Part shown: piece after piece, positions 50,071 through 64,000 of the stretch
How the letters are laid out: each line of letters opens with the position of its first letter
Position numbering within the stretch: position 1 is the first letter of the stretch
Assembly: GCA_024672275.1 (NCBI GenBank)
Contig: GCA_024672275.1_4536.1
From: a phage
Strand: one strand, 5' to 3'
Length of the DNA: 64,000 bases
The notes under the pieces: model-generated
Seen by the model: only the letters and a program-made list of their open reading frames with translations
What the model was told of the DNA's origin: nothing
The model's database searches: none
Program-made: the position numbers and the translations under genes

Positions 50071-50079
50071 TTTTTCTCC

Positions 50080-50688
50080 TTAGTTTTTAAAATTGTTCAA
50101 AGTGTTAAAAACATCCAAACATGTTAGCCACTGATCTTCTAAACTTGTGATCACAACATTTGGTTTTTTCTTTAGTTCTTCTAGATGGTTATCTTTATAA
50201 GGCGTATTAAAATATATTTTAACCACTTCATCTGGAAAATATAGTAGGTTATCAGCCCTGTCATCTATTGCTATGTCACAAGGCAATAAGTATTTTTCTT
50301 TCGTAGCAAAAAAGCCGTTGCCAGATCCTTTGCTAAAATCAATCGTATCTAATGTTCTTAAAACATGCTTATGTTTAGAACTTAAGTGACCACCTTTTGT
50401 CACACTTGCGATCAAAAGATTGCTACCTTTTCTTGAAACATACTTTAAGAAATCTGGCATACCTGTAACAAAACCCATCGTATCATAGAGATGAGGATTA
50501 TCCAGAAATCCGTAAGGATCTATGTTGAACTCTTCCCTGAAACCAGGAAAATAGTTGGTAAGATCGTAATCTGCATTTTTTGTGAATGTGTCGATTTTAA
50601 CACCAAGGCCACTAATCTTATTCAACCATTCTAACCAAGCAACATCTAACGGAGCCACAACTAAATCCCAATCACATACTATCTGCAT
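50080..50688 (-). CDS. HAD-family 5'(3')-deoxyribonucleotidase-like protein (202 aa)
   Basis: N-terminal DxD motif (VCDWDLV) of HAD phosphatases; location in dNTP metabolism cluster. Confidence 0.4.
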   Translation of the reverse strand: MQIVCDWDLVVAPLDVAWLEWLNKISGLGVKIDTFTKNADYDLTNYFPGFREEFNIDPYGFLDNPHLYDTMGFVTGMPDFLKYVSRKGSNLLIASVTKGGHLSSKHKHVLRTLDTIDFSKGSGNGFFATKEKYLLPCDIAIDDRADNLLYFPDEVVKIYFNTPYKDNHLEELKKKPNVVITSLEDQWLTCLDVFNTLNNFKN

Positions 50689-50706
50689 AAAACCTCCTCT
50701 CTCTTT

Positions 50707-50735
50707 TAGTATAGTTATCTTATACTAACTTTCAA
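50707..50735 (-). promoter_or_regulatory. putative sigma70-type promoter (- strand)
   Basis: On - strand TTGAAA, N16, TATACT upstream of HAD gene RBS. Confidence 0.35.
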
Positions 50736-51300
50736 TTTCCTGCAATAGGATTTTGACTATTTGTTTACGGCGTTTTGCTACTGTGCTTTCAGGTTCTATT
50801 TTACGCTTCTTCAACCAAGCTTTATCTTTCTTAGCTCTACACAAAGCTATTGCTTCTTTTTCAGCTTTTGCTTCTTCAAAAGATATGCCTTGCTTGTCTG
50901 CATAAGCAAGAATAGAGTTGCACAATTTACAAACCATTCGCAAATCTTCTTCTTTCACATAGATTAAACGGAAAACAAAAAGAGGAATATCATCAAAACA
51001 TTGAAGTTGTTTTGCTGCGTGAATATGATCCACTTGGAAGTCTTTCATTCCTCCTCTATGTCCACATATTTCGCACTCACAATTCCAAACTTGTTTTGGT
51101 TTTCCAGTTTTCTTGTCTATCATCACATTGCCGTCTTTATCTACTCGATCAACTTTAAAACGCCTTGCATTGATAACCTTAATTTTATTAGGGTGTCTCA
51201 TCCATGCTTTTCTAAAACATCCCCTAAGATAAGTATAAAATTCAGCTTGTGTTTTCCAGGGTGTTCCTTCACCCCACATTATTTTTGGTTCACCTGCCAA
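50725..51300 (-). CDS. HNH endonuclease (homing-endonuclease-like), 191 aa
   Basis: HNH motif CECEICGHRGG...DHIH...CKLCN; start ambiguous (TTG 51300 or ATG 51279). Confidence 0.6.
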   Translation of the reverse strand: MAGEPKIMWGEGTPWKTQAEFYTYLRGCFRKAWMRHPNKIKVINARRFKVDRVDKDGNVMIDKKTGKPKQVWNCECEICGHRGGMKDFQVDHIHAAKQLQCFDDIPLFVFRLIYVKEEDLRMVCKLCNSILAYADKQGISFEEAKAEKEAIALCRAKKDKAWLKKRKIEPESTVAKRRKQIVKILLQEIES

Positions 51301-51347
51301 TATTGCTCACCTTTTTAGCTGTATATTCCCCTGGTGGGATATTGTGT

Positions 51348-51380
51348 TTAAAAAACAAAAGGCGGTCTAACCCCGCCTTG
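51348..51380 (-). terminator. rho-independent terminator
   Basis: - strand AAGGCGG-GGUUAGA-CCGCCUU followed by UUUGUUUUUU. Confidence 0.55.
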
Positions 51381-51467
51381 CACATTGTTTCTGGAATAGT
51401 CAAAGTTAGTAAAAGTTTATCACCTTTTCGGTTGAATATTTTATAAACTTCTCCTGCTCCATATTGT

Positions 51468-51869
51468 TTAGTATTGCTCGCCACTAATACGTTCCTTAAG
51501 TTGTTTAATAGCTTCAACTGCATCTACATAAGAAGAGTTATACATGTGTTTCAGTGCCACTCGGATTAAAGGATCTTTTGTGAAGAAATCAATAAGAAGC
51601 ATAGCTTGATCATGTTTAGCTGCATTTGTCATAGATGGATAATTTTCACGAACCATATACGTGTTATTTTGCATAAGGGTTCTTTCTAGTTCAATACAAT
51701 GAATAGCTTTATCTAGGTTAATCTGACGTTCACCTTTAATACGTGTTGCGTATTTTGCCAATTTGCAAAAACAAGGTGTACCACCAACCAAATAAGCTAG
51801 TTCAATAGGTTGCATTGCCATTTTTGTGTAGTGATCACCGTCAACCTGATTATCAAAAGCATTAGACAT
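51468..51869 (-). CDS. hypothetical protein (133 aa)
   Basis: RBS CAGGAGGAAA + ATG; ORF track. Confidence 0.55.
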   Translation of the reverse strand: MSNAFDNQVDGDHYTKMAMQPIELAYLVGGTPCFCKLAKYATRIKGERQINLDKAIHCIELERTLMQNNTYMVRENYPSMTNAAKHDQAMLLIDFFTKDPLIRVALKHMYNSSYVDAVEAIKQLKERISGEQY

Positions 51870-52089
51870 AATTTTCCTCCTGAATTCCTACTGCGCCTTC
51901 TTCTGGGTAGTCTGTATAATAAGCTACCCTACCTTGATAGATAACATCACCATCATCATTGTAGATTGCTGTATCTTCTTGAATTGTTATTTCAACGTCA
52001 AGTAAATCTGGGTCTTTCTCGATGGTATAGTTTAGACCTAACATTTCAAACAGTTCGAAAATTTCGTTACCTGTTAATGTAATGCTCAT
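51862..52089 (-). CDS. hypothetical acidic protein (75 aa)
   Basis: Internal ATG 52089 with RBS AAAGGAGGAAAT (track start 52134 lacks RBS). Confidence 0.5.
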   Translation of the reverse strand: MSITLTGNEIFELFEMLGLNYTIEKDPDLLDVEITIQEDTAIYNDDGDVIYQGRVAYYTDYPEEGAVGIQEENYV

Positions 52090-52175
52090 ATTTCCTCCTT
52101 TTATTGTGGTTAGCAGAGTATACACTAATATCAAATTTTTGTCAATAAAAAAGGGAGCAATAAGCTCCCTGATTA

Positions 52176-53135
52176 TTAGATTCCAATAATAGTTGCTGCT
52201 CGTTTATCTTTGGATCTGGTGTTTGCTCTACTACGTGACAAACCTCCACAAGATTCACAACGAATGATATCGAAAGAACTTACCGCAGTGTGGTATTGCT
52301 TACCAGTAACAACGTGAACATGATCACTGCCGCAACGAGAACAACGGACTTTCTCATCTGGGTAATAAGCGGATAAGTTAGGATGCTGTGGAATCCACGG
52401 AAGGATTTTCATATACAAATCACGGAGTGAAACAACATCGCCATCATTGTAAATCTGCATACGTTCAAAAGCATCACGATCACCTTCACAACATGCTTTC
52501 CATAAAGGGAACCCCTCGTTATCCAGTTTTTCACTTTCTGTTTCAAAATACGCTCCCATTTCTTTAAGAGAATTGGAAGGAAGTGCAAACTGTTTCTTAG
52601 CTGCCTTCAAGGTATCAACAACTACATAGTTAGAAGGTGGAGCCATATCATGATATGCGAAGCGTTGGTTAATGTATGCACGGTCAAACTTATACCCGTT
52701 GTGTGCCACAACTACATCTGCCTCGTTCAGAAGGTTCCAAAGATCTTGGCAAAGCTCCCAATCATCCGTATGATCAATATCAAAAAGAGGATAAGAAGAC
52801 AAGTTCTTACCTTCCACTTCGCCAGTATACAGGTCAGCAGAAGAGTAGGATAACAAATAACCTCTGCGAATCACCTGGTCTGGAGAAATGAAGGCTTTGA
52901 ATCGACGGAAAGTATATGCAATCTCTGGTGCAGTTTCAACATCAATAATTTTAATAACTGGTTGTTTCTTTTTAACTGGCTCTTGTTTACTTGCTCCAAA
53001 TCGTGCAAGGAAATCGTTCACTGTGCTTTTTCTTGTTGGACTACCTAAAACAATTGCTGCAATATTACGAGAAGACATACCCTCTGCACTCATACTAAGG
53101 ATATCTGCTTTCTGCTCTTCTGTTAATCTGCTCAC
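52176..53135 (-). CDS. DnaQ-like (DEDD) 3'-5' exonuclease with N-terminal HTH and C-terminal zinc ribbon (319 aa)
   Basis: Exo I IDVETAP, Exo II VVAHNGYKFD, Exo III YNDGD; C-terminal CSRCG...CESCG; GTG start with RBS CAGGAGG. Confidence 0.6.
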   Translation of the reverse strand: MSRLTEEQKADILSMSAEGMSSRNIAAIVLGSPTRKSTVNDFLARFGASKQEPVKKKQPVIKIIDVETAPEIAYTFRRFKAFISPDQVIRRGYLLSYSSADLYTGEVEGKNLSSYPLFDIDHTDDWELCQDLWNLLNEADVVVAHNGYKFDRAYINQRFAYHDMAPPSNYVVVDTLKAAKKQFALPSNSLKEMGAYFETESEKLDNEGFPLWKACCEGDRDAFERMQIYNDGDVVSLRDLYMKILPWIPQHPNLSAYYPDEKVRCSRCGSDHVHVVTGKQYHTAVSSFDIIRCESCGGLSRSRANTRSKDKRAATIIGI

Positions 53136-54250
53136 TCTGCCTCCTGTTGTGAGATGTATGACTGAAGCATACTCTCAAATGTTGTATCGTCATTATCCCA
53201 GCGTTTCATGTATACCAACTGGAAAATTGTTTCTATCCATTCATCTGTTGTCATATGGACTTCTTCTCCATCCCAAGAAGTAAAATTAACACCATCTGGG
53301 AACCACGAGTAGTAAGTATCTTTAACTGTTTGGAAAAGTTCTGCTTGAGTTTTACAAGCTGAAAGAAGATTAAAACAAGTAATATCTCCGAACTTAATAT
53401 CAAAATCTTGATAAGGTCGGATACTATCTGTTTTATCTCCCATTAGCATCTGATATGCTAACCAGTAACTGCCCCAACCTTTAACTTCTTTCTTTTTACC
53501 TTTATCTACAATCCATATATCGCCAATAGACTCGTCAATAAGAATTATATCTGGATTTTTAAATACTCCATCCTCTTTGTAGAAATTAAAAAGGATACTA
53601 GGAGTATGTAAACTATCTTTATCTATAGACACTACGATATAAGAAAATTTACCCGTCCTTTTATAATCTTTATAACCTTGGAAACCATACTTCTCTAACT
53701 CATCGTCAGCCTCTATTACAGTAACAACATCACCATTGTGGAACTCCACAAGATAATCTTTGGTTTCTGAAAGCTGAAGTGGTTTGATATCTAATCGTTC
53801 AGATTTATATTCTACAGGCATTTTGAAGGCGTGTCTGAAAGTTTTTCCTACGCCAATAACTCCGCAATATTTTTCTAAACGTAGATGTTTTAGAATACCT
53901 AAGACTTTTGTTTTAGCTGCTTGGAAGGTGTGTCCGATATCTTCTGGCGGGTATTGCTTATCAATGATTTCGAACTCTTCCTTTGTGAAGGGACGTTTGT
54001 TTTTGGAGGCTCTTTCTGCATTTGTATCTCCTAGCCAACCTCCAATTTTAGTCTTGCTTTTACCCCAAAACTCTGTCTTATTTTTAAATTCCTTTTGAGC
54101 ACCTGAAGGGATGTGCTTCGCAATGATTGTTCTTTTCTCTAACGCAGACGCTGCTTGGAAAGCGATCTGATCATAATCAATTGCAGCTATTGTTTCTTCG
54201 TTGACATATAAATGAAGATCTTCAGGTTTAATTAAAATATAACCGCTAAT
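53132..54250 (-). CDS. T4 RNase H-like 5'-3' exonuclease / flap endonuclease (about 372 aa) with non-canonical start
   Basis: C-terminal half (track ORF 53132..53821) has FEN motifs EADDE, VVSIDKDS, MLMGDKTDSIRPY; 146 stop-free in-frame codons upstream encode N-terminal IAAIDYDQIAF (cf. T4 RNase H ICLIDFSQIAL) but contain no ATG/GTG/TTG; candidate AUU start at 54250 after AGGGGG. Confidence 0.65.
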   Translation of the reverse strand: MSGYILIKPEDLHLYVNEETIAAIDYDQIAFQAASALEKRTIIAKHIPSGAQKEFKNKTEFWGKSKTKIGGWLGDTNAERASKNKRPFTKEEFEIIDKQYPPEDIGHTFQAAKTKVLGILKHLRLEKYCGVIGVGKTFRHAFKMPVEYKSERLDIKPLQLSETKDYLVEFHNGDVVTVIEADDELEKYGFQGYKDYKRTGKFSYIVVSIDKDSLHTPSILFNFYKEDGVFKNPDIILIDESIGDIWIVDKGKKKEVKGWGSYWLAYQMLMGDKTDSIRPYQDFDIKFGDITCFNLLSACKTQAELFQTVKDTYYSWFPDGVNFTSWDGEEVHMTTDEWIETIFQLVYMKRWDNDDTTFESMLQSYISQQEAE

Positions 54251-54262
54251 ATTTCCCCCTAA

Positions 54263-54472
54263 TTATTCATCGTCATCCTCTGTTGAGAATGTTTTAGTAT
54301 ACGGACATTGACGACTTTTCGGGATTGCTATAACTTCATCTTGGTTAGCGTTAGAATAGTAGCAATATTTTGTATTGCCATTAACTTCAGAATCAGACAA
54401 GATTAAAGTAATTTGACCTGCTGCTACTGTGAAACTAAAAGCTAAAAGAACGACTGTCAGAATCTTTTTCAT
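54263..54472 (-). CDS. secreted small protein (69 aa)
   Basis: Signal peptide MKKILTVVLLAFSFTVAAGQ; RBS AGGAGG; stop codon in frame with downstream FEN reading frame. Confidence 0.55.
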   Translation of the reverse strand: MKKILTVVLLAFSFTVAAGQITLILSDSEVNGNTKYCYYSNANQDEVIAIPKSRQCPYTKTFSTEDDDE

Positions 54473-54483
54473 AACGCCTCCTA

Positions 54484-54512
54484 AAAAGCCTACCTCATTA
54501 AGTAGGTAGGCA
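54484..54512 (-). terminator. rho-independent terminator
   Basis: - strand 8-bp stem GCCUACCU/AGGUAGGC followed by UUUUUAGGAGG. Confidence 0.6.
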
Positions 54513-54544
54513 TAATATCATAACTAATCCCGCAAGTCAAGAAC

Positions 54545-55423
54545 TTATTTAAGGATTGTTGCTTTGGTTAAATCTTCCATCAGACCTCGAATCTCATTGA
54601 AGCACAGAAGGACCGAAGCTTCAATACTACCTTCTTCGTCTGCAAAATATTTCGGAAAACGTAGTTTAGAAAGTTTAAACTCTTTATCCACTACAAAATC
54701 TACAACACCGTCATATTCAAGACCGATTGCAACAACATCTTTACCATCTTCTTTTAGTTCGACAGCTTTAGACTCGTATAGGGATTCTTTACTCCAAACA
54801 ACAACGCCCTCGCTATCCTCCATTTTGATATAATTTCCGAGAGTAATACGATCTGCTTCATGATTCTCCAGCAATTCACCAAAACCTTTTACAATAGCTT
54901 CTTCGTGCACACTAAAACCTACCGAAGGGAAAGTCCCCAGAACGGAACGGAGGAAAGAAGTAATCTCTTCTGCAACCTTTTTACTTCCATTAAGAACATA
55001 AAGAAGATTCGTAGTTTTATCCAAGACAACATAGTTAAAGAAATCTTCAGGTTCTGTTTCAGGCAATAGTGCAAATTCAATATCTTCCTTCATTGCTTTG
55101 ACTACTTCTTTATCGACATAAAACTCTTTACCTTCGCTCTCCATGTCCTGACGCATTTCTTCTAGACGTTCATTCAGAATACGTTTAACTTTCTTTTTAT
55201 CTACCTTCTTCACAGATTGACCTACATTAAGTAGTTCAAGATCTGAAAACTCTTTTACAAATTTAGAGTCATCTTCGAAACGAACAAGACCGATAGTGTG
55301 TGACTGGGAGCCTTCTGCTGTTACAAATTCCAGAGGAATATCTGTAATGCTGTTAAGGGATGCTACAGAAGCATTGTCACCAACAACCATAGGCAGAGCG
55401 GATTTAAAAGATTTTACAAACAT
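54545..55423 (-). CDS. RdgC-like recombination-associated protein (292 aa)
   Basis: Size and segment ITSFLRSVLGTFPSVGFS resembling RdgC LALLRKSLGSLPVVPLS; RBS ATAGGAGGAAA. Confidence 0.4.
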   Translation of the reverse strand: MFVKSFKSALPMVVGDNASVASLNSITDIPLEFVTAEGSQSHTIGLVRFEDDSKFVKEFSDLELLNVGQSVKKVDKKKVKRILNERLEEMRQDMESEGKEFYVDKEVVKAMKEDIEFALLPETEPEDFFNYVVLDKTTNLLYVLNGSKKVAEEITSFLRSVLGTFPSVGFSVHEEAIVKGFGELLENHEADRITLGNYIKMEDSEGVVVWSKESLYESKAVELKEDGKDVVAIGLEYDGVVDFVVDKEFKLSKLRFPKYFADEEGSIEASVLLCFNEIRGLMEDLTKATILK

Positions 55424-55453
55424 GTTTCCTCCTATTTAATACATCTCACATTA

Positions 55454-55470
55454 CCGCCCGTAAAGGGCGG
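55454..55470 (-). promoter_or_regulatory. GC hairpin upstream of RBS (- strand)
   Basis: CCGCCC-TTTAC-GGGCGG between stop 55480 and RBS of 55423 gene; resembles + strand cassette hairpins; no U-tract. Confidence 0.4.
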
Positions 55471-55479
55471 CTTACAACA

Positions 55480-56205
55480 TTACTTGTTAATAATACCTGC
55501 GATATTAGGTTTAATGAAACCTGACCACTTCATGATCTTACCTTTATCATCAAAGAACACATACACTTTCTGTTTTTCATTATAAACAGCATGGACACCA
55601 GTGTATGCCCCTTCTGGACGATTGGCATTTCGTTCTTCAATTGCAGCGCATTCTTGTGCAATGGCTGAATCGATATCTGAAGTTTTCCAAGTTTTCAGCA
55701 ACTGTTGTTTAGTTGGATACTTGGAATCATTACTTTTCAATACCTCTTTAATAACTTTCTTTTCTGGATATTTTGAACGGATCAGAGTGTCACGAGACAT
55801 ACGCATAATACCCGCAGCCATTAGCGCCATTTGAACTGGCTCTGTAAATGTTTGTTCCAAAGCATCGAAATCGGTATACACAGTTGGAGTAAAAACATCG
55901 CCTACAGCATAGTCCAAGAAATTCAGCGTATGTTCTTCACCAAAGAACATGTAAGTAAGATAACTGGATACTACAAAAATATCCGCTGCTGCATCCAAGA
56001 GTTCTACATGATCGTTTACTTTCGCGGCTGTTTCATACTCTTTAAGCTCTTCACGAACGAACCCGATTTGGGACATAAATAACTCTTGAGTGAATTCAGG
56101 TTGTTCACCACCTCGTGCTTTGGCATTCCAATCAATTACGTGCTTTGCTGCATTTTTGAAAAATTCAGTATCGAATTTAATATCTTTAAAAAAATTCTCG
56201 ATCAT
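55480..56205 (-). CDS. MazG-like all-alpha NTP pyrophosphohydrolase-like protein (241 aa)
   Basis: EE..E...A......VELLDAAADI pattern typical of MazG/HisE fold (weak); RBS TAAGGAGAAA. Confidence 0.35.
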   Translation of the reverse strand: MIENFFKDIKFDTEFFKNAAKHVIDWNAKARGGEQPEFTQELFMSQIGFVREELKEYETAAKVNDHVELLDAAADIFVVSSYLTYMFFGEEHTLNFLDYAVGDVFTPTVYTDFDALEQTFTEPVQMALMAAGIMRMSRDTLIRSKYPEKKVIKEVLKSNDSKYPTKQQLLKTWKTSDIDSAIAQECAAIEERNANRPEGAYTGVHAVYNEKQKVYVFFDDKGKIMKWSGFIKPNIAGIINK

Positions 56206-56218
56206 TGTTTCTCCTTAT

Positions 56219-56407
56219 TTAAAAATATTGTTTTGTAAATTCCACCAGATATACAACAACTGCACCCATTTGTGTACCTGCTGCACCGTAGACAATAATT
56301 AGACTAACCTTCTGCCACCATGTTGGGTGAGAGAAAGTTGATGCGCCAATTATACCACAAGCAACAATAGAAAGGAACACAAGAACCAGAATAACTTCAA
56401 TGCTCAC
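56219..56407 (-). CDS. small membrane protein, holin-like (62 aa)
   Basis: Two predicted TM helices; GTG start with RBS AAGGAGG. Confidence 0.45.
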   Translation of the reverse strand: MSIEVILVLVFLSIVACGIIGASTFSHPTWWQKVSLIIVYGAAGTQMGAVVVYLVEFTKQYF

Positions 56408-56418
56408 TGCAACCTCCT

Positions 56419-57048
56419 TTATGTTTTAATCTTGCCAAAATACAATACTTCAGCTTCCTGTCTTGCTGATATAGCATCTTCAATATCAGTAAATGCTCCA
56501 AGACGGATATCTTTTCCTTGATAGGATATACGAGCAATCCATCTTTTTTCTTTCTCGCTCCACACAACACCTGTTTTACCAGAAGTGTTGTTTTTCTGTT
56601 TTCGTGTATTGTATGACTGGACAGACCTTGTAGCCCAGCGACAATTTTCTTTACTGTAATCTTTTTCCGAGTCTATTCTGTCAAGAGATAAACCTTTAGG
56701 TCTATCTCCCATATCCTCAAAAAATGCAGAGAATGAATTTCTCCAAGCATCGCAGACCTTAATACCACGACCACCGTAGTATTCAAAGTGAGTATTGTTT
56801 TTGTTATAGCATCTCCCTAACATAGCTTCCCACGATTTGTATGCTCCTGTTTGTGTTGTTTGCGGTCTACACTTCGAACAATAAGAACTTTTATTCTTCC
56901 TAAGTGTTGCCATAGTTACCGTGCAAATATTACCACAATCACAAGAACAAGTAAAACGTCTTTTGCCATGCTTGTCCCTTTCAATCTCTTCTAAGACAGT
57001 ATAACAACCACATTTCTTACCTACAAGGTCTACTCTCTTGGCTCCCAT
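56419..57048 (-). CDS. homing-endonuclease-like protein with AP2-type DNA-binding repeats (209 aa)
   Basis: N-terminal Cys cluster; AP2-like repeats W.AMLGRC....YGGRGIKVCD.W and GVVWSEKEKRWIARISYQGKDIRLGAFTDIEDA; paralogous to 62751..63356. Confidence 0.5.
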   Translation of the reverse strand: MGAKRVDLVGKKCGCYTVLEEIERDKHGKRRFTCSCDCGNICTVTMATLRKNKSSYCSKCRPQTTQTGAYKSWEAMLGRCYNKNNTHFEYYGGRGIKVCDAWRNSFSAFFEDMGDRPKGLSLDRIDSEKDYSKENCRWATRSVQSYNTRKQKNNTSGKTGVVWSEKEKRWIARISYQGKDIRLGAFTDIEDAISARQEAEVLYFGKIKT

Positions 57049-58145
57049 GTTCCCTCCACCATTTCCCGTAAACGGACACCTGTTGGTTTAGTAGGTATTC
57101 CACCATCAGAAAACTCTTCATACTCAATCTCAACAAATTTACCAATTAACATTTCGGCATTCTCTGCTTTACGATAATTGATAGTCTCATGAGCATCTTT
57201 ACGCATTAAGAATTCGACTACTTTACCATTTTCCATCTCACCTGTCAACACTCCATCGCCATTTTTATCACTTTTTGAATTTGTTACTTTAACTTCAAGG
57301 GTATGGCGAGGCTTACGTTTAATAACGTCATAAGAACGTTTATCAAATTCGTAAACTCCGTGAGCATTACGATATACTACACCTTCAGCTTTCTCAAGTA
57401 AAGCTTTTTCATAGAAAGCATCAAACTGTTCTTGGTTTTCAATATACTCTGTATGAACTACACAAATAAGCTCGTCAAGACCATAATCTTCAACTACTGC
57501 CTTAAGAGCAGCAAGAACATCAACACGTTTTTCAAACGGTAGATCTGGAACTGGAATATCGTATACGTAATAGTTCAGCAAAGGTGTATTTGCATTATGC
57601 TTCTTCCAGGCACTGTTAATTTGTTGTAGACTAAGGACACCTAACCCAGCAAACACTTCACCATCAAGAGGATGACCAACAACTTCACTAATAAAGTTTG
57701 GAATACCTTTCCAATGAGGTGGCAGGTTATACACTTCCCCAGCTTTTGATAAACACTCTCCTTTCATGTTAATCATAGAACGTAACCCGTTCAGTTTGTA
57801 TTGTGCATAACCAGGGAACACAACCCTTTCAGGATAATCTTTATAATCCTGGCATTTCATTGGTGTGGAAGGAACATGGTTTTCAGCTTCTTCTTTTGTT
57901 TTATAATAGCCATTCTTTAACTGTTTTGTCCATTTGGCAAAAGCTTCAAGTTCAGCTTGTTCTTCTGGTGTTGTTTCATTGGAACGACCAATGTTTTTTG
58001 CTTCTGCTGTATAAGATTTTTCTGTGATTTTTCCACCTACCCTTCCATGAGCTACAGTAACAACTGCACCATCTGTATACACTGTCCACTGTTTAAGTTT
58101 TCCTTTTGAATCTTTACCATACAGCGTTTGATTTGTTTGTTGCAT
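57030..58145 (-). CDS. ATP-dependent polynucleotide ligase-like nucleotidyltransferase (371 aa)
   Basis: Motif I variant YAQYKLNGLR (KxNG), motif IV-like EGVVYR, motif V-like KRKPR; internal ATG 58145 with RBS GGGAGGA. Confidence 0.5.
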   Translation of the reverse strand: MQQTNQTLYGKDSKGKLKQWTVYTDGAVVTVAHGRVGGKITEKSYTAEAKNIGRSNETTPEEQAELEAFAKWTKQLKNGYYKTKEEAENHVPSTPMKCQDYKDYPERVVFPGYAQYKLNGLRSMINMKGECLSKAGEVYNLPPHWKGIPNFISEVVGHPLDGEVFAGLGVLSLQQINSAWKKHNANTPLLNYYVYDIPVPDLPFEKRVDVLAALKAVVEDYGLDELICVVHTEYIENQEQFDAFYEKALLEKAEGVVYRNAHGVYEFDKRSYDVIKRKPRHTLEVKVTNSKSDKNGDGVLTGEMENGKVVEFLMRKDAHETINYRKAENAEMLIGKFVEIEYEEFSDGGIPTKPTGVRLREMVEGTWEPRE

Positions 58146-58366
58146 TAGTCCTCCCATTTAAAAACTGAAATTTTCAATCTGTTACACACTTCATCCAAAT
58201 CTGCGTCGAGTAACGTTGTAGATGTTGCCAACATATAATCAATGCTTGTGAAACCTTGCCCTTTGGCATAGTCAAGCATATCTTCATACATATCTTCAAG
58301 ATCACCGTCATCAAAAGTAGCTAGAAAATCCTCGTCCCCACTACGAACATAAAATGCAGTACTCAT
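58145..58366 (-). CDS. hypothetical acidic protein (73 aa)
   Basis: ATG overlapping upstream TGA; ORF track. Confidence 0.5.
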   Translation of the reverse strand: MSTAFYVRSGDEDFLATFDDGDLEDMYEDMLDYAKGQGFTSIDYMLATSTTLLDADLDEVCNRLKISVFKWED

Positions 58367-58554
58367 TCATCTTCATCCCAAGATTCAAAAACGCAGCAAT
58401 CATCGGTTTCTATAATACCAACACGTCCGCAGGTATTGCAAGTGATTTTATCACCGTAGAATAAATAATTTTTATCACCCTCTGTGTTTACAGTTATGTC
58501 ATTACTACCACAAGGGCAAGTCAGCCAACCAACAACAACGATATCTTTTTTCAT
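58363..58554 (-). CDS. zinc-ribbon small protein (63 aa)
   Basis: CPCGSN ... CNTCG; RBS AAGGAGGGATT. Confidence 0.5.
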   Translation of the reverse strand: MKKDIVVVGWLTCPCGSNDITVNTEGDKNYLFYGDKITCNTCGRVGIIETDDCCVFESWDEDE

Positions 58555-58563
58555 AATCCCTCC

Positions 58564-58890
58564 TTAAGCGTTAAGTTCGTTGTTGAGTTCGTAAATCTCT
58601 TCTTGAAGAGCATCAATCTCTTCCTCCAAACGGGAGATCTCTTCTTTTAGATATACCATTTCGGATTCTTTCTCTTCTAATTCATTTTCAAATTTTACTT
58701 TATTAGCCTCATTTTCATAATGCAGTTCAGCGTAATCATCACGCATTTGTTCAATAAGATGAATCAGAGACAAGATATAATTGTCTCCCGTTTCATCACG
58801 CCACTCTTCACCGTGACGGAGAACGGTAATTCGTCCAGTATCTTCATCTAAAATTGTCTCATATTTACGATCATCTGTATAAATCTGCAT
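58564..58890 (-). CDS. hypothetical coiled-coil protein (108 aa)
   Basis: RBS AAGGAGAAATA + ATG; heptad-rich C-terminus. Confidence 0.55.
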   Translation of the reverse strand: MQIYTDDRKYETILDEDTGRITVLRHGEEWRDETGDNYILSLIHLIEQMRDDYAELHYENEANKVKFENELEEKESEMVYLKEEISRLEEEIDALQEEIYELNNELNA

Positions 58891-58899
58891 TATTTCTCC

Positions 58900-59304
58900 T
58901 TATTGAAGTTTAAGTGAACCACGAAGACGTTTCTCTTGCTGATCACGGATATATTGTGGAACCTCGTGAATTGAATCATTACCGTGCCTATTTTCAACAA
59001 CTAAAGAGATAACTTGATAACCAAATTCTTCAGCAAGAGCTAGATAAGGTTTAAGTTCTTTCTCTGTGGTTGAAGTATTAGAAACAATAATCTTGTTAAG
59101 ATTAGATGCCATAGCATCACGAACAATACCCTGACACCATGCGTGTGCTTTACCTACATTTTCTGGCTTCCAATCGTAAACACCACTCTCTGTGTAATGA
59201 TATTGATCTGCCTCACAGATAGGCCAATAACCTTCAGAAATAATTTCTGCTACTGTAGATTTACCAGCACCTGAAACACCACGTAAAATGATAAGTTGTT
59301 TCAT
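58900..59304 (-). CDS. P-loop polynucleotide kinase-like protein (134 aa)
   Basis: Walker A GVSGAGKST at N-terminus as in T4 Pnk kinase domain; directly follows RNA ligase gene. Confidence 0.55.
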   Translation of the reverse strand: MKQLIILRGVSGAGKSTVAEIISEGYWPICEADQYHYTESGVYDWKPENVGKAHAWCQGIVRDAMASNLNKIIVSNTSTTEKELKPYLALAEEFGYQVISLVVENRHGNDSIHEVPQYIRDQQEKRLRGSLKLQ

Positions 59305-60237
59305 TTATCCTCCAAAAAAGTTTTCGATTTTTTCACGTCGCTCTTGCTGATTTAAAGCAGCCCATTGAATCTTCGTAAAATTATTTCGAATCCATTCTAA
59401 CAAAGCGTAATATTCTTCGTCAACCATTTGTTTGGCATTTTTTGGATTATCCCAAATCAGATCCCACTTTTTATCTCCACCGCGCATAAGAAACTTCTTA
59501 GTAAGATAGTGTGGTGATTTAATTTTTAAAAGTAAGTTGAACGGATAGTTTGTTTCACGAACTACAAACCCTTCGTGTTTACAATGTTTAGACATTTCAA
59601 CAACATCTGAAAACTTAACCATTGGATGAACTTCAGGACGCTTAAATTTGGTGACAGAAGCAATTCCATCAAGAGCACCTTCAGGTAACATAAAACTTGT
59701 CCCATCAGGATTTTGAATTCTGGCACCAATTAAGTATGCACCTGGTTCTTCTTCGACAATATGCGGATCAGAAGGATCACAGATTTCAAACAGGAAAGTT
59801 GCTTTTGCACTCTCTGCCCATTTGATGAAATGTTCTATGTCATCGCACTCTGAAACAATATGATTCTTTGCAATACTTGCAAAATCTGATTCAAGGCTTC
59901 CTGTTGTCGATACAATAAGTTGACCTTTATATACACCTACAGAGGCCATAAAACCATTTACTTTACGAACCACATCTACAAGTTCATCCGCTGGTAGATC
60001 TGTGCCATTCTCAAAACGATTAAAAATCTTAGTGAAAGGCCAAATAACAACATTGTCATCAGCATCAACAACGATTCCGCGACATTCTAGAAGACGAGAA
60101 TCAATGCTCCATAAGTTATCCCAGAAAACTTTGTTCTTATACTTAAGAACAGATAGGCCAGAATACTCTCCTTCTTTATATGTTTTCTTATGAACTAAAC
60201 CTTTTTCAACCAAATCGTCGCAATTAAATTTAGTCAC
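59305..60237 (-). CDS. RNA ligase, T4 Rnl1-like (310 aa)
   Basis: Colinear with T4 RnlA N-terminal half: LLECRGIVVDADDNVVIWPFTKIFN (cf. [29 protein letters not shown]), motif I KVNG, EGFVVRE, LLLKIK; GTG start with RBS AAAGGAGAG. Confidence 0.75.
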   Translation of the reverse strand: MTKFNCDDLVEKGLVHKKTYKEGEYSGLSVLKYKNKVFWDNLWSIDSRLLECRGIVVDADDNVVIWPFTKIFNRFENGTDLPADELVDVVRKVNGFMASVGVYKGQLIVSTTGSLESDFASIAKNHIVSECDDIEHFIKWAESAKATFLFEICDPSDPHIVEEEPGAYLIGARIQNPDGTSFMLPEGALDGIASVTKFKRPEVHPMVKFSDVVEMSKHCKHEGFVVRETNYPFNLLLKIKSPHYLTKKFLMRGGDKKWDLIWDNPKNAKQMVDEEYYALLEWIRNNFTKIQWAALNQQERREKIENFFGG

Positions 60238-60238
60238 A

Positions 60239-60790
60239 TTACTCTCCTTTGATTATTTTGTGATGGTCTACAGTCACGATATCTCGTTTACCCATCATAG
60301 AAATTATCTCATCAAAATGCAAGATTTTTCCGTGTGCATCCCAACCCACATCTAACATTTTACCATAAGCTTCATCAGGGAAAGATCCGTGGGAATGCCC
60401 GTGTAGCATGATTGATCCACGCCCTTGTTTATTCCAGGAGGCTATAGGGTAATGGCTTAAGACGAAGAACAGCTTCTGATATTTCACTTCGTCATAATAC
60501 ACCACTTCTCCATACTCTGCAAGCACTTCTCGGTGTTTGCTGTAATCATGGTTCCCAACACAGTAGGTGATATCTCCTTGGAGACGGGAAGCAATTTTAC
60601 GGGTATCTTCTTCAGTTCCGAAACAGAAGTCGCCCAAATGCCACATCTTAACACCAGGAGTAGTAGCACATTTGTTCCATGCTTCGATCAAGGCTTCTGT
60701 CATGTGGTCCATATCTTCCCACGGACGATATTCAGGAGCAAACTCTCGAATACGTTTATGCATAAAATGCAAATCGCTTGTAATAAACAT
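60239..60790 (-). CDS. calcineurin-like metallophosphoesterase, candidate polynucleotide 2',3'/3'-phosphatase (183 aa)
   Basis: MPE motifs SDLHFMH, HLGDF, GNHD, LHGHSHG; immediately upstream of RNA ligase and kinase. Confidence 0.6.
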   Translation of the reverse strand: MFITSDLHFMHKRIREFAPEYRPWEDMDHMTEALIEAWNKCATTPGVKMWHLGDFCFGTEEDTRKIASRLQGDITYCVGNHDYSKHREVLAEYGEVVYYDEVKYQKLFFVLSHYPIASWNKQGRGSIMLHGHSHGSFPDEAYGKMLDVGWDAHGKILHFDEIISMMGKRDIVTVDHHKIIKGE

Positions 60791-61146
60791 TAGTATAATC
60801 CCTCGCTAAATAATTCATGGTCGTGACCATTACGCTCATGGTCGATCTGGTCCGCATTTTCCGCGATGATGTAAGCATCCGCACGACTCCACCAATTGTA
60901 ATACTGATCGATAAAGCCTTGATTATCTGGTGTGCACAAAGTTTTGTTGATTACACCTGCTTCTTTCAACACGCTTAACTGTGCATATAGTACAGGATTT
61001 GCATGTCGAACACAAGGAATAATTAACTCTTCACCATTATTCAAAATATACTTATTCGCAGCACAGACGATAACACGTTGCGCATAATGACCCTCACCAA
61101 TCCAGGTAAGAGGTTGGTAACAAATGTTGTTTTCAATACCACTCAT
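60790..61146 (-). CDS. hypothetical protein (118 aa)
   Basis: RBS GAGGAGGATT + ATG; ORF track. Confidence 0.55.
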   Translation of the reverse strand: MSGIENNICYQPLTWIGEGHYAQRVIVCAANKYILNNGEELIIPCVRHANPVLYAQLSVLKEAGVINKTLCTPDNQGFIDQYYNWWSRADAYIIAENADQIDHERNGHDHELFSEGLY

Positions 61147-61296
61147 TGTTTCCTAATCCTCCTCTCTTAAGTTATCCTCGAAAAAACTAGTGTCTGGAAG
61201 TAAAAGATCATTACTTGTGTCGGGCCAATCCTCTTCTTCTCGGTAGATAAAGTAACCTTCGTCCTCTTCTTGTTCCGACCAAACCGAATGATGCAT
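61147..61296 (-). CDS. hypothetical acidic small protein (49 aa)
   Basis: RBS TAAGGAGAAAAC + ATG about 61296; fills gap between flanking genes; below ORF-track cutoff. Confidence 0.4.
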
Positions 61297-61305
61297 GTTT
61301 TCTCC

Positions 61306-61650
61306 TTAGTAGTGCACACGAATCATTTTAATACCATAACGCAGCATGGATTCTTTTGCAAGCATGAATTTATCCCCAGCGGCGGGATTAGAAGTATGCA
61401 CGAAAATGGTAGGTGAACCAAAGCAAGGTTTACCAAACGCCAGAAGTTCTTCCAGGTGCAGGAAAACATCATACCCATCTTGGTCTGACTCCATACCTAA
61501 ATCATTGTCAAAAGACCACTCGGTTACTCTTCGATACAGTTTAGCAGGATCATTGAGAAAGGTCATAGCTTCTTGTGACGTTTTAAACCAAATTGCGTCT
61601 TCCTGTCCATAGTCGGCTGGGTTCCGCATATCATCTATCCAAACTTTCAT
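61306..61650 (-). CDS. hypothetical protein (114 aa)
   Basis: RBS AAAGGAGG + ATG; ORF track. Confidence 0.55.
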   Translation of the reverse strand: MKVWIDDMRNPADYGQEDAIWFKTSQEAMTFLNDPAKLYRRVTEWSFDNDLGMESDQDGYDVFLHLEELLAFGKPCFGSPTIFVHTSNPAAGDKFMLAKESMLRYGIKMIRVHY

Positions 61651-61660
61651 ATAACCTCCT

Positions 61661-62131
61661 TTAAGCTGGCATGATCAAAAAAGAACTTTCCACTTCAAAA
61701 TGCCAATCATCAACAAGCCCTGATTCCCAATCTTTCTCTTCATGGAAAGAGCAAATCCAACGGTACATACCTGGCGGTGTATTCTCAACATCTTCTGGCA
61801 ACCCATAATCCAAAGCTGTCTTACCGTTCTCTGTAAAACCAGGATGGAGATTAGGAGCTTTCAGTACAGAAACCATACCTCCAACATCCACAGCTACGAT
61901 CCACTCTGTCATGTATGGGCTGTCATATTGAGGCTCATCAGAACCTACCTCAACAGCCTCTGTGCGTAAGATGATAATAGCCTGCTCTGTGATTGGGGCT
62001 TTGACAATATACCCGTGATCCTCAAAAAGATCGATAACCTCGAACTCATCGCCGTTTTCTACACCATAACTCTTATTCAAAGAGATAAACTTCGGGTTAT
62101 CATCGTAAGCTTTAGTTACTTTAATTCTCAT
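61661..62131 (-). CDS. hypothetical protein (156 aa)
   Basis: RBS GAAGGAGG + ATG; ORF track. Confidence 0.55.
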   Translation of the reverse strand: MRIKVTKAYDDNPKFISLNKSYGVENGDEFEVIDLFEDHGYIVKAPITEQAIIILRTEAVEVGSDEPQYDSPYMTEWIVAVDVGGMVSVLKAPNLHPGFTENGKTALDYGLPEDVENTPPGMYRWICSFHEEKDWESGLVDDWHFEVESSFLIMPA

Positions 62132-62334
62132 TTTTCCTCCTTCACTTTAACCTCAAATTCTACAGGATTACCCTCAATGTAAAAACACTGATACTCTGCC
62201 TTATCATCCTCATCATGAGGCCAAGTTACCAAAGAGTTATAGCAATCTTCTGGTGCTTTGAAGATGGTTTTAGTCTCCACAGTAACATTCCCATTGAGTG
62301 TTGCCAATACCACCCACCCAGCTACAGGGATCAT
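62128..62334 (-). CDS. hypothetical protein (68 aa)
   Basis: Internal ATG 62334 with RBS GTGGAGG. Confidence 0.5.
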   Translation of the reverse strand: MIPVAGWVVLATLNGNVTVETKTIFKAPEDCYNSLVTWPHDEDDKAEYQCFYIEGNPVEFEVKVKEEK

Positions 62335-62513
62335 AGTGCCTCCACTTTCCACGTTTTACCATTATCAACCAAGGTCTTTGCTACAGCATACTCCTTCCCA
62401 TTAACAAGGAAATAATAAACGATAAAAGATTTCCCGATTGTTACTGTCTTAGTAACCTCTACACGTTTAACACCTTGCATGTATTTTGCCTTACCGGAAT
62501 AGAGTAAAATCAT
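62331..62513 (-). CDS. hypothetical protein (60 aa)
   Basis: RBS AGAGGAAT + ATG; ORF track. Confidence 0.5.
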   Translation of the reverse strand: MILLYSGKAKYMQGVKRVEVTKTVTIGKSFIVYYFLVNGKEYAVAKTLVDNGKTWKVEAL

Positions 62514-62791
62514 TTTGCATTCCTCTTGTTGTTGATAACATCCATAGCAGTATATGGTTTATTAGTGCCATGATACTCCAGAATCATTGGAGAGCCTTCT
62601 TGCACTACTTCAAAGATACCATAAACAGAACTTTCAGCAAATACCATTTGCTTCGTGCCTTCATCGTTTACAACGAGAGAAAACTTCTTGCCTGTCCCGT
62701 TGAGGATCTCATATTTCTTGCCAGCAGTGAATAATCCAGAGTACCACTCATTATCTGTTGCTTTTACACACTTCAGGAAAGTCTTGATCAT
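62510..62791 (-). CDS. hypothetical protein (93 aa)
   Basis: RBS AGAGGAGATAAA + ATG; ORF track. Confidence 0.55.
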   Translation of the reverse strand: MIKTFLKCVKATDNEWYSGLFTAGKKYEILNGTGKKFSLVVNDEGTKQMVFAESSVYGIFEVVQEGSPMILEYHGTNKPYTAMDVINNKRNAK

Positions 62792-63356
62792 TTCTTTTTA
62801 TCTCCTCTTTTAATCTATCTACTATACGAACATCATAGACGCCCTCTGTATACATGTCAATAACTTCTTCAAGATAAACTTTTTTAGCTTTTCTGTAAGC
62901 TTCTTTTGCTGCCTCTTCTGTAGAAAAACTTCCAAGATAGAAGCCCTTACCGAACTTACGGATGCTCGCTTGGTAGACCTTATCTCTCTTGTGATATGTA
63001 ACACCCCTATAAGATGTCGAACCCATAAGTGCAAAATTCACATACTCTGGTATAAAGACACACGTGCTTGGTGAATAAACTTTAGAATCGGAAAGAAAAT
63101 CCTTATCTAAAACTTTACCTTCCCAAGATTGACTCTCCATCCAGTTTTTGAAGTTAGAGAAGACCAACCATTCATCACAAACTTGAGCATTTTTGTATGC
63201 TGGCATCCTTGCCAACTGCTTCTCACAGTAACACCTACGCAACATATCCGTCCATCTCTCGTAATAAGGGCATGTCTTCCTTTTACCATCTTCTCCCCAA
63301 AAAGTAACTGGAACTTTTGAATCATTTATTCCTTTTCCGAACACTAGTTTTTTCAT
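62751..63356 (-). CDS. homing-endonuclease-like protein with AP2-type DNA-binding domain (201 aa)
   Basis: AP2-like segment YRGVTYHKRDKVYQASIRKFGKGFYLGSFSTEEAAKEAY; W..MLRRCY box shared with 56419..57048. Confidence 0.5.
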   Translation of the reverse strand: MKKLVFGKGINDSKVPVTFWGEDGKRKTCPYYERWTDMLRRCYCEKQLARMPAYKNAQVCDEWLVFSNFKNWMESQSWEGKVLDKDFLSDSKVYSPSTCVFIPEYVNFALMGSTSYRGVTYHKRDKVYQASIRKFGKGFYLGSFSTEEAAKEAYRKAKKVYLEEVIDMYTEGVYDVRIVDRLKEEIKRNDQDFPEVCKSNR

Positions 63357-63675
63357 AAATTTTTAATACTCCGTTTTCTTTTGCACAGGTTGGTACTGTC
63401 TTAAGTCCTCTTCGTTTTGCATCTGGAAGATTGAGTGTCCACCATCCGAACCAATAAATTTGGTCTGCCGTGAGTGGTTCAGCCATTGGATCTGCCTCCT
63501 GCTCCTCAAGACGTTGCAACGCTTCTTCAATCTTCTCGATTGGTGTGTCAAAGACGAATGCCTCCGTATCAAATTTATCTTTCTTAGGAACTGATTTAGC
63601 TACTTTGAGAACCTCGTTTTTCGGTTTCTTAGTAACGTTCTTTGGCTTTGATAACTTCTTCGGTGTTTTCGCCAC
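63322..63675 (-). CDS. hypothetical protein with basic N-terminus (117 aa)
   Basis: GTG start with RBS GGAGGTAGTAA; K-rich N-terminal 40 aa. Confidence 0.5.
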   Translation of the reverse strand: MAKTPKKLSKPKNVTKKPKNEVLKVAKSVPKKDKFDTEAFVFDTPIEKIEEALQRLEEQEADPMAEPLTADQIYWFGWWTLNLPDAKRRGLKTVPTCAKENGVLKIYEKTSVRKRNK

Positions 63676-63868
63676 TTACTACCTCCATACGATCTAAAAA
63701 GTCATTCACAAATCTCCAGTAACGTTGACCTGTTCTAAGATCTTCATAGATAACCACAGGATCAAACACTTTAGATATTCCGGCAGGTTTTGGAAATTCC
63801 ACTACTGTATATAAACCACCTTTTGCTACACAAGAATAGGTTACGCCTGTAATTGGATAGTTGCTCAT
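63629..63868 (-). CDS. hypothetical protein (79 aa)
   Basis: ATG overlapping upstream TGA (ATGA); ORF track. Confidence 0.5.
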   Translation of the reverse strand: MSNYPITGVTYSCVAKGGLYTVVEFPKPAGISKVFDPVVIYEDLRTGQRYWRFVNDFLDRMEVVSGENTEEVIKAKERY

Positions 63869-64000
63869 TTCTTTACGTACTCCATGATTGGGGTATGGTC
63901 GCCAGTAAGCGTAACACGGCTGTAGGACACATCTTGTGTCTTCAGTGTATCAATCCACTCTAAGAAGTGTTCTTTCGCTTCTGTGTAGTTCTGTGTGCCT
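63865..64000 (-). CDS. hypothetical protein, 3' end only (continues beyond window)
   Basis: Stop-free - strand frame from window edge to TGA at about 63865 that overlaps ATG of next gene. Confidence 0.4.
   Translation of the reverse strand, partial: GTQNYTEAKEHFLEWIDTLKTQDVSYSRVTLTGDHTPIMEYVKK

Follow-up and report, generated by a model that had tools for sequence, protein, structure and literature searches.

Two probable homing-endonuclease-type genes without the catalytic histidine, and a vertically inherited HNH nuclease, in the replication module of a phAPEC8-like coliphage

Free-standing homing endonuclease genes (HEGs) lodged in clusters of essential genes, the co-conversion of the sequences beside them and the presence of nuclease genes at recombination boundaries are already established, and a class of genes that joins an HNH-like domain to an AP2 domain has been named. 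This class, IPA-HNH, is defined bioinformatically (Barth et al., 2023, PMC10448857). The classification of His-Me finger domains includes three groups without a histidine, among them the Smad MH1 domain, which only binds DNA, and PacI, which is active (PMC5714182). In PacI, a tyrosine of the Omega loop takes over the role of the histidine and the metal is bound by Asp and Asn (PMC5714182; PMC4081073). Another group of proteins relevant here, the CasPR repressors, consist of a CapR zinc finger (cysteines C33/35/37/56/58) and an AP2 domain and silence cas genes by DNA binding alone. In this work, three genes were analysed in a stretch of phage DNA of 64,000 nucleotides (nt) (GenBank assembly GCA_024672275.1, contig GCA_024672275.1_4536.1; hereafter, the window), which is a Phapecoctavirus (phAPEC8-like) genome of an Escherichia coli phage. 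An earlier note on the same DNA had read these genes, referred to here as genes 1, 2 and 3 (Table 1), as free-standing homing endonucleases. This reading held for genes 2 and 3, whose distribution bears the population signature of such elements, and was abandoned for gene 1, which is a core gene, syntenic and intact. The explanation that we regard as probable is that genes 2 and 3 are selfish, free-standing IPA-HNH genes of the homing-endonuclease type and that gene 1 encodes a vertically inherited zinc-HNH nuclease.

The history of gene 2 can be followed at base-pair resolution. The gene is absent from the four closest annotated relatives of the window, where 374 nt with two small open reading frames (ORFs) occupy the place of the 806 nt found at 56225-57030. 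A sliding comparison showed that the window is 99-100% ESCO37-like on both sides of 56189-57161 and 96-99% VEcB-like inside, with more than 210 consecutive informative sites of the donor type flanked by more than 100 (left) and more than 50 (right) sites of the backbone type. The left crossover (56188|56207) falls at the start codon of the pyrophosphohydrolase gene, where 18 nt are the same in the two genera, and the right one (57156|57162) lies within the ligase gene, 126 nt from its 3′ end. Only 6 records of the phage collection contain the 806-nt segment, at ~97% identity; among these, VEcB, muut and PaulScherrer are classified in Justusliebigvirus, and ESCO8 is a further carrier. No Phapecoctavirus record of the collection has gene 2, and within Justusliebigvirus it is polymorphic. 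In public assemblies, the exact 209-amino-acid (aa) protein is encoded on Justusliebigvirus-type contigs (L010, L012-L016) and also on two Phapecoctavirus-type contigs, L011, which has gene 3 as well, and L017, which lacks it. Only ~5 of ~950 nt of the patch distinguish it from the Justusliebigvirus contigs (~99.5% identity), while the backbones are 70-87% identical. Because the window, L011 and L017 have identical breakpoints and four derived substitutions in common, a single, very recent transfer between the genera is indicated, after which the patch would have reassorted with respect to gene 3. The two elements assort independently: gene 2 occurs without gene 3 in L017 and gene 3 without gene 2 in phage REC. 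Within the donor genus, VEcB, which carries gene 2, and phi92, which does not, differ little (97-100% identity) outside a block whose ends nearly coincide with those of the patch. Two stretches inside the patch (56207-56233 and 57069-57130) are common to VEcB and the element-less phi92 and are not found in ESCO37, which indicates that the transfer went from Justusliebigvirus to Phapecoctavirus.

The arrival of the patch changed both neighbours of gene 2. The two small resident ORFs of element-less Phapecoctavirus genomes were replaced by a single 62-aa ORF that is ~90% identical to VEcB gp085 and unlike the 60-aa and 64-aa ORFs of ESCO37. The C-terminus of the DNA ligase changed from ...REMIPGTWEPAE in ESCO37 to ...REMVEGTWEPRE in the window, identical to VEcB. 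The Shine-Dalgarno sequence (GGAGGG) and the ATG of gene 2 exist only in the ligase allele of element-bearing genomes and are absent from the element-less allele; the codons that create them (57030-57070, minus strand) read ATGGTGGAGGGAACATGG, compared with ATGATCCCAGGCACTTGG in phages without the element. The ligase gene and gene 2 overlap by 19 nt, which suggests that their translation may be coupled. As a separate observation, the window has an extra homopolymer A at position 56221 with respect to all seven other element-bearing sequences, which makes the small ORF one codon shorter (..YF* instead of ..YFK*) and may reflect either an error of sequencing or a mutation private to this genome.

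Gene 3 is an insertion that only a minority of the relatives carry. It was found in 5 of ~65 close records (about 8%) at 99-99.8% identity, corresponding to the four phages REC, ESCO5, 536P1 and EF1-1, always at the same locus, and it is missing from ESCO37, 10C3 and most other relatives. Where the window has 564 nt, ESCO37 and 10C3 have ~31 nt. When element-bearing (window, REC and EF1-1) and element-less (ESCO37 and 10C3) sequences were compared column by column, 25 of the 77 positions of the right flank differed, no further fixed difference between the two groups appeared from there until 63806, and beyond the tracts on either side of the insertion the genomes were essentially identical. 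Gene 3 overlaps its two neighbours by 35 and 41 nt. No element-less phage of the collection has the flank allele linked to gene 3, the best listed match being 84.6% identical; the donor of the divergent flank was sought in this collection and not found, and its lineage is unsampled. The insert also contains a promoter-like sequence, TTGACA-17-TATGAT (11 of 12 positions, sigma-70-like; 62832-62860, minus strand), directed toward gene 62510-62791; the element may in this way provide transcription for that gene, from which it has separated the upstream neighbour.

Genes 2 and 3 are read as mobile because of three observations: presence/absence polymorphism at a fixed site in both cases, an identity of the element far above that of the backbone across genera in the case of gene 2, and, next to both, sharply bounded, hyper-divergent tracts that extend into the adjoining genes. 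The comparison of synteny with relatives lacking the genes, proposed in the earlier note, located the insertion sites of genes 2 and 3 and yielded none for gene 1. Since both genes 2 and 3 lie between intact ORFs, they are free-standing; an intron or intein context was considered and rejected on these grounds and because there was no Rfam match at E<=1 in 50000-64000.

The family to which these genes belong is large and occupies other sites of the same region. Phage 10C3 carries another member (161 aa, phrog_374; L003:7937-8422) between the RdgC and pyrophosphohydrolase genes, and gp074 of phi92 (L007:3107-3763) is a further AP2-containing member without the histidine, located between nrdB and nrdA. 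A tblastn search with gene 2 detected relatives in 1788 phage records, 233 of them of Vibrio phages, and many lay inside or beside DNA polymerase genes. A protein search returned at least 7988 family clusters, almost all without Pfam annotation. At the site used in 10C3, two allele types were observed among close relatives at 55495-55530, in the 3′ end of the pyrophosphohydrolase gene (55480-56205), and the window and REC have the flank allele associated with the 10C3 element and no element. Such an allele may have been left behind by an element that arrived and was later lost, or it may be one that resists the element.

With regard to the proteins, the three ORFs were found on the minus strand exactly where they had been placed, with lengths of 191, 209 and 201 aa, and the W..ML.RCY box described for genes 2 and 3 is present in both (YKSWEAMLGRCY and YERWTDMLRRCY, respectively). 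The AP2-like repeats attributed to these two proteins turned out to be a single AP2 domain in each. Likewise, the two genes had been called paralogous; they are homologous (BLASTP, 28% identity over 141 aa, E=1e-9), but as distant members of one family that were acquired separately, and a recent paralogy was rejected given this identity, the different domain sets and the different donor lineages. A hidden Markov model of the gene-2 family detected gene 3 (E=1.5e-14) but gave no convincing match to any further ORF in the window. The AlphaFold2 model of gene 2 (pLDDT 89.7) consists of a three-strand ribbon (residues ~10-60), a helical domain with the W..M..RC and YGGRGI motifs (63-113), a beta-beta-alpha unit (121-146; strands 121-124 and 136-139, helix 141-146) and the AP2 domain (157-205). 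In the gene-2 family, the cysteines of the ribbon follow the pattern C-x-C-x-C-x18-C-x-C (C34/36/38/57/59 in family numbering), gene 2 itself having C60 in place of C59. Gene 3 comprises the W..ML.RCY box domain, a beta-beta-alpha unit and AP2, with no zinc ribbon, and its AP2 match in Pfam (E=1.3e-7) falls slightly below the cutoff of 33.3 bits. The full proteins gave no match to Pfam HNH_3 (PF13392) at E<=0.1, and the isolated central domains and the zinc ribbon matched no Pfam family at E<=10; a composed consensus-like family sequence likewise gave no HNH_3 match at E<=10. Canonical HNH_3-AP2 relatives, in comparison, score 75-78 bits on Pfam HNH_3. Sequence searches of the PDB returned only AP2 proteins, besides a match to the zinc ribbon of L31 that was dismissed as spurious.

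Profile comparison revealed what the central unit is related to. Alignment of the gene-2 family with six canonical HNH_3-AP2 proteins using hhalign covered the whole beta-beta-alpha unit (99.8% probability, E=8.7e-28) and placed LSLD123-R124-ID..Y131...N135-CRW..Q144..N147 of gene 2 on IDH55IN..N63...N67-LR..N76..N79, so that D123 corresponds to D54. For the gene-3 family, the alignment with the same proteins (97.6%) began at the second strand and matched N107 to the metal-binding Asn, and a multiple alignment put D84-K85 of gene 3 at the D-H position and Y94 opposite Y131 of gene 2. Where the first metal ligand is expected, both genes therefore retain an acidic residue (Asp), and the position of the metal-binding Asn is occupied by Gln144 in gene 2 and by Asn107 in gene 3. 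At the position of the general base, the canonical histidine is absent from every member examined, namely 120 relatives of gene 2 and 45 relatives of gene 3. Among the former, R124, Y131, N135 and W138 are each present in 120/120, D/E123 in 119/120, N147 in 117/120 and Q144 in 106/120 (Ser in the rest). Among the latter, K85, D86, Y94 and N107 are each present in 45/45 and D84 in 44/45. Judged from these alignments, the variant site is a different and strongly constrained configuration and not a decayed one. The label HNH given to genes 2 and 3 should accordingly be used with reserve, since the catalytic histidine has been replaced by Arg or Lys in every member examined. Compared with the canonical HNH_3/I-HmuI enzymes, both genes share the beta-beta-alpha homology and lack both the Pfam HNH_3 score and the histidine of the D-H pair. 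They belong with the IPA-HNH class, because they combine an atypical HNH-like domain missed by Pfam with a C-terminal AP2 domain, an assignment made by architecture and not by homology to the genes of ICP1. The two features given for CasPR/CapR-AP2 proteins, helical linkers only and a location in acr loci of Bacillota prophages, were not found, as compared with the published description only.

The process that would generate the observed pattern starts with the AP2 domain, which would read a long DNA site, aided in gene 2 by the CapR-like zinc ribbon, with the divergent beta-beta-alpha-metal unit alongside. In a mixed infection, the protein would break the allele of a co-infecting relative that lacks the element, close to the site of insertion. 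The presumed targets are, for gene 2, either the ligase gene at its 3′ end or the region of the small ORFs and, for gene 3, the 3′ end of gene 63322-63675. Repair from the element-bearing genome would then copy the element together with a short flank, and the substitutions of this flank would render the new allele uncuttable. The outcome of this process, conversion and insertion, is observed in the genomes, whereas the cleavage step itself is one that we infer. Because an Arg or a Lys stands in place of the histidine, the products of genes 2 and 3 have to be described as putative nucleases. By analogy with PacI, the chemistry would most likely involve the tyrosine as base or nucleophile, with the Arg/Lys stabilising the phosphate.

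A number of points weigh against this explanation. In gene 2, Gln instead of Asn occupies the metal-binding position. Arg, Lys and Tyr are also typical contacts of phosphate groups, so their conservation is no proof of catalysis. The literature searches returned no published test of cleavage for the His-less family or for the IPA-HNH class. Moreover, a single transfer into Phapecoctavirus is documented, given that the three contigs have identical breakpoints, and ordinary homologous recombination at conserved islands could yield the same pattern of patches. The best placed of the rival explanations, which we nevertheless consider unlikely, is that genes 2 and 3 are nuclease-dead, sequence-specific DNA binders, that is, domesticated HEG derivatives that repress genes of host defence, of competitor phages or of satellites, and whose patchiness would reflect selection on an accessory 'moron' moved by ordinary homologous recombination. 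The missing histidine is what such a binder would show, and His-Me fingers without it can be pure DNA binders, as illustrated by Smad MH1 (PMC5714182). In addition, the cysteine spacing of gene 2 is that of the CapR domain of CasPRs, in which CapR and AP2 suffice to silence cas genes without any nuclease activity. The missing cleavage tests and the single documented transfer into Phapecoctavirus count in its favour as well. On the other hand, a repressor would have no need of hyper-divergent flanks that extend into the neighbouring ORFs, which fit with cleavage followed by repair with immunity substitutions. The beta-beta-alpha unit is also retained, and within it the acidic position of the metal ligand, the Tyr of the Omega loop and N135/N107 are strictly conserved; CasPRs, as published, join CapR to AP2 through helical linkers alone. 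The distribution of the family at several different polymorphic intergenic sites of one module, and within or next to the DNA polymerase genes of many phages, also speaks against this view, as does the context, since the genes lie outside any acr locus, the phage is a lytic coliphage and there was no PADLOC match (defence and anti-defence models).

If genes 2 and 3 are homing-endonuclease-type elements, the large family could constitute a distinct class of homing endonucleases in which the His-Me finger is free of histidine and an Omega-loop Tyr, together with the Arg/Lys, acts as base or as covalent nucleophile. This more specific proposal is put forward tentatively, as a possibility that is more doubtful than the explanation from which it is derived. 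Under it, the chemistry of the tyrosine would be PacI-like or resemble that of HUH enzymes and topoisomerases. If the tyrosine forms a covalent adduct with DNA, homing would proceed through a protein-linked break, unlike any characterised phage HEG. The CapR-AP2 anti-CRISPR repressors would, on this proposal, descend from the same scaffold through removal of the beta-beta-alpha unit.

It is much less probable that genes 2 and 3 are decaying remnants of HNH homing endonucleases, stranded after fixation and headed for deletion. Degeneration once fixed is what the classical life cycle of a HEG predicts, the histidine is missing and gene 3 has also lost the structural Asn (T98). However, R124, K85 and Y131/Y94 are present in all the relatives counted above, across sequences only 40-50% identical, and family-wide invariant substitutions of this kind imply purifying selection instead of decay. 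Both ORFs are intact, gene 2 has crossed genera very recently, and neither element is fixed in its host population.

Gene 1 behaves in a different way. It has no homology to genes 2 and 3 and matches phrog_1985, 'HNH endonuclease', end to end (E=8.5e-66). Its Pfam scores are sub-threshold, both for HNH (14.9 bits; cutoff 21.4) and for Endonuclease_7 (14.4 bits; cutoff 23.6), and a precomputed PF01844 match is carried by several of its homologues. The features of HNH (PF01844)/endonuclease VII-type enzymes, a D-H base, an N/H ligand, a zinc site and a beta-beta-alpha fold, are all present, and 53/54 family sequences retain D91-H92, as many retain N/H128, and most have the CxxC...CxxC zinc site. 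The gene was found in 134 related records, in 133 of them at >=80% coverage, with identities of 95-99% within Phapecoctavirus and ~74% in phi92-like Justusliebigvirus, where the flanks are ~70% identical. The homologue in phi92, gp081, has the same position, and even homologues only 37-55% identical, on unrelated metagenomic contigs, still have as neighbours genes for a DnaQ-like exonuclease, a 5′-exonuclease, RdgC, TK, ThyX and RNR. No presence/absence polymorphism was found for gene 1, its flanks are not hyper-divergent in four close relatives and the protein has no sequence-reading domain of the AP2 or NUMOD type. The sporadic distribution and horizontal transfer that characterise homing genes are therefore not seen. 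The earlier note had named conservation at the same position in all relatives, with loss of the catalytic residues, as what would speak against homing; for gene 1, the first was observed and the residues are not lost. Because it is conserved in all these records, diverges together with its flanks, is syntenic and has an intact site, gene 1 is a vertically inherited core nuclease of the replication, recombination and nucleotide-supply module and not a homing element. Its product most likely processes DNA on behalf of the phage, by analogy with T4 endonuclease VII in the resolution of branched DNA or else in the breakdown of host DNA that feeds nucleotide salvage; a point against this half of our explanation is that the function is deduced from fold and neighbourhood only. 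Compared with the gp74-type enzymes of GVE2 and HK97, gene 1 is not adjacent to a terminase gene, and both these enzymes and T4 endonuclease VII lack its extra conserved N-terminal (WGEGTPWKT..YLRGCLRKAW) and C-terminal helical regions, which gave SAP-like fold matches. The claim that all three genes are homing endonucleases marking sites of marker exclusion is hence the least credible of all, since the intact HNH core, the annotation and the location of gene 1 among essential replication genes would suit such a role, but its constant position in 134 records, its synteny down to such low protein identity, its divergence at the pace of its flanks and its lack of a DNA reader, of polymorphism and of flank hyper-divergence contradict it.

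Table 1. Features of the three genes and of their surroundings in the window.
Feature	Position	Strand	Details
Gene 1, core zinc-HNH nuclease, 191 aa, not mobile	50725..51300	-	
Gene 1, HNH catalytic core, aa 76-128	50917..51075	-	C76xxC79...D91-H92...C124xxC127-N128
NT5C-type nucleotidase gene, beside gene 1	50080-50688		
DnaQ-like exonuclease gene, past three small ORFs from gene 1	52176-53135		
Gene 2, free-standing IPA-HNH-type element, 209 aa	56419..57048	-	phrog_374, E=1e-72; no Pfam match
Gene 2, N-terminal Cys-rich zinc ribbon, aa 10-60	56869..57021	-	C34, C36, C38, C57, C60; CapR-like by Cys spacing
Gene 2, His-less beta-beta-alpha unit, aa 119-147	56608..56694	-	LSLD123-R124-ID...Y131...N135-C-R-W138...Q144..N147
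Gene 2, AP2 DNA-binding domain, aa 157-205	56434..56580	-	
Imported patch (co-conversion tract), Justusliebigvirus origin in Phapecoctavirus backbone	56189..57161		~960 nt
Small membrane-protein ORF, 62 aa, co-transferred with gene 2	56219..56407	-	phrog_19851
Last 42 DNA ligase codons, donor allele	57030..57156	-	contain Shine-Dalgarno sequence (GGAGGG) and ATG of gene 2
Gene 3, free-standing IPA-HNH-type element, 201 aa	62751..63356	-	phrog_953, E=8e-77
Gene 3, His-less beta-beta-alpha unit, aa 82-108	63033..63113	-	VLD84-K85-D86...Y94...T98-C-V-F101...N107
Gene 3, AP2 domain, aa 115-161	62874..63014	-	PF00847, 32.2 bits; phmmer match to WRI1
564-nt insertion carrying gene 3	62812..63375		blastn against ESCO37 and 10C3; junction sequences
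Hyper-divergent right flank, 3′ end of upstream gene 63322-63675	63373..63449		candidate target/immunity region
Left-flank substitution cluster, linked to presence of gene 3	62800..62807		7/8 nt

The surroundings of the three genes were well represented in the phage collection, in which 141 records match the ~15-kb stretch around them and 65 do so at 95-99% identity; the matches listed at that level are all phAPEC8-like Escherichia myophages. REC, ESCO37 and 10C3 are classified as Stephanstirmvirinae, genus Phapecoctavirus. The stretch is a module of replication, recombination and nucleotide metabolism in which every gene is on the minus strand, and which encodes the large subunit of RNR, ThyX, the NT5C-type nucleotidase, the DnaQ-like exonuclease, a 5′-exonuclease and RdgC, as well as a MazG-like pyrophosphohydrolase, an ATP-dependent DNA ligase, a polynucleotide-kinase-like ATPase, an RNA ligase of the T4 Rnl1 type and a phosphoesterase. 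The order of nucleotidase, gene 1 and exonuclease had been given correctly, except that three small ORFs intervene before the exonuclease gene. In Justusliebigvirus, a thymidine kinase gene lies between the nucleotidase gene and the homologue of gene 1 (L005:1883-2446; L007:8373-8936), and the corresponding junction of the window (50689-50724) and of other Phapecoctavirus genomes has none. The pair formed by the Rnl1-type RNA ligase and the AAA_33 kinase (58900-60237) is missing in L019 and L020, two otherwise syntenic contigs of the Phapecoctavirus type, and this RNA-repair pair is therefore itself variable. Similarly, a 146-nt segment (61153-61298) with an ORF of ~47-50 aa is missing in EF1-1, and several metagenomic contigs also appear to be without it. 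Sigma-70-like promoter sites were not enriched (44 observed, 41.5 expected), and no meaningful match to curated NCBIfam models was obtained. Related phages (Mt1B1_P17, Inny and Muut) encode an 'Odn-like' anti-satellite nuclease made up of T5orf172 and RepA_N, as reported by Barth et al. (2023, PMC10448857), where muut is treated for that T5orf172/RepA_N gene, a different one from those studied here. Term searches of the supplementary files of the same paper found no mention of phAPEC8, phi92, ESCO5 or VEcB.

To what was already established, this analysis adds an intergeneric transfer resolved to the base pair in the phAPEC8/phi92 group, the family-wide absence of the catalytic histidine with an invariant Arg/Lys and an Omega-loop Tyr, an architectural link between these elements and CapR-AP2 repressors, and the separation of gene 1 as a core nuclease. 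Gene 2 provides a clean natural case of a selfish nuclease-type gene that crossed from one phage genus to another, altering the last part of the essential ligase gene and displacing two small genes that resided there. Elements of this kind create mosaic boundaries in the genomes of therapeutic coliphages of the phAPEC8/phi92 group. The blanket annotation 'HNH endonuclease' hides two different things, a conserved housekeeping nuclease and a huge His-less family whose cutting activity is a deduction. To decide between tyrosine-based cutting and binding alone would clarify thousands of phage annotations and the origin of AP2/CapR repressors, among them the CasPRs.

Among the systems described, the IPA-HNH genes of ICP1 (gp59, gp115/116 and gp209) are alike in having an HNH-related domain missed by Pfam and a C-terminal AP2 domain, and in being free-standing, near replication and nucleotide-metabolism genes and at the boundaries of recombination patches, according to Barth et al. 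(2023, PMC10448857). Relative to that account, gene 2 differs by an N-terminal CapR-like zinc ribbon, which is linked there to T5orf172 HEGs, and the carriers here are phAPEC8/phi92-like coliphages; term searches of the paper did not return the absence of the histidine together with an invariant Arg/Lys and Tyr. The canonical HNH_3-AP2 proteins (I-HmuI group, His-Me group 2), such as VIP0052 of Salmonella phage Vi II-E1 and gp78 of phage tonn, have the homologous unit followed by AP2 and the same motif order, D-x...N...N..N, as genes 2 and 3. They differ in that their H55 is Arg/Lys and their N63 is Tyr in the present family, their N76 is Gln in gene 2, and their N-terminal beta-sheet (..YWKI..VHRIIWE..) is replaced by a helical W..M..RC/YGGRGI domain. 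PacI (His-Me group 20; PDB 3m7k/3ldy) also has a His-less beta-beta-alpha-metal unit, with an Omega-loop Tyr in the role that Y131 and Y94 may have, a metal bound by Asp and Asn, and zinc-bound motifs that flank the site. In contrast, there is no detectable sequence homology and the fold score is weak, so that Y131 can be equated with the PacI Tyr by topology alone, and PacI is a homodimeric 8-bp cutter without AP2.

The free-standing HEGs of T4 (SegG, MobE and marker exclusion of the I-TevIII type) resemble genes 2 and 3 in their location between essential genes, in the inheritance of flanking markers and in that the element-bearing allele differs in the adjacent coding sequence. They belong to different nuclease families (GIY-YIG or canonical HNH), and their cleavage and super-Mendelian inheritance are experimental findings, whereas genes 2 and 3 have left a genomic footprint only. 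Finally, the CasPR repressors and the CapR of PLE have in common with gene 2 the pattern of cysteines (C-x-C-x-C...C-x(1-2)-C) and the C-terminal AP2 domain. CasPRs, as described, differ in having helical linkers instead of the beta-beta-alpha unit and in residing in acr loci of Bacillota prophages, and gene 3 has no zinc ribbon; both the CasPR/CapR proteins and genes 2 and 3 stem from the DNA-binding modules of HEGs.

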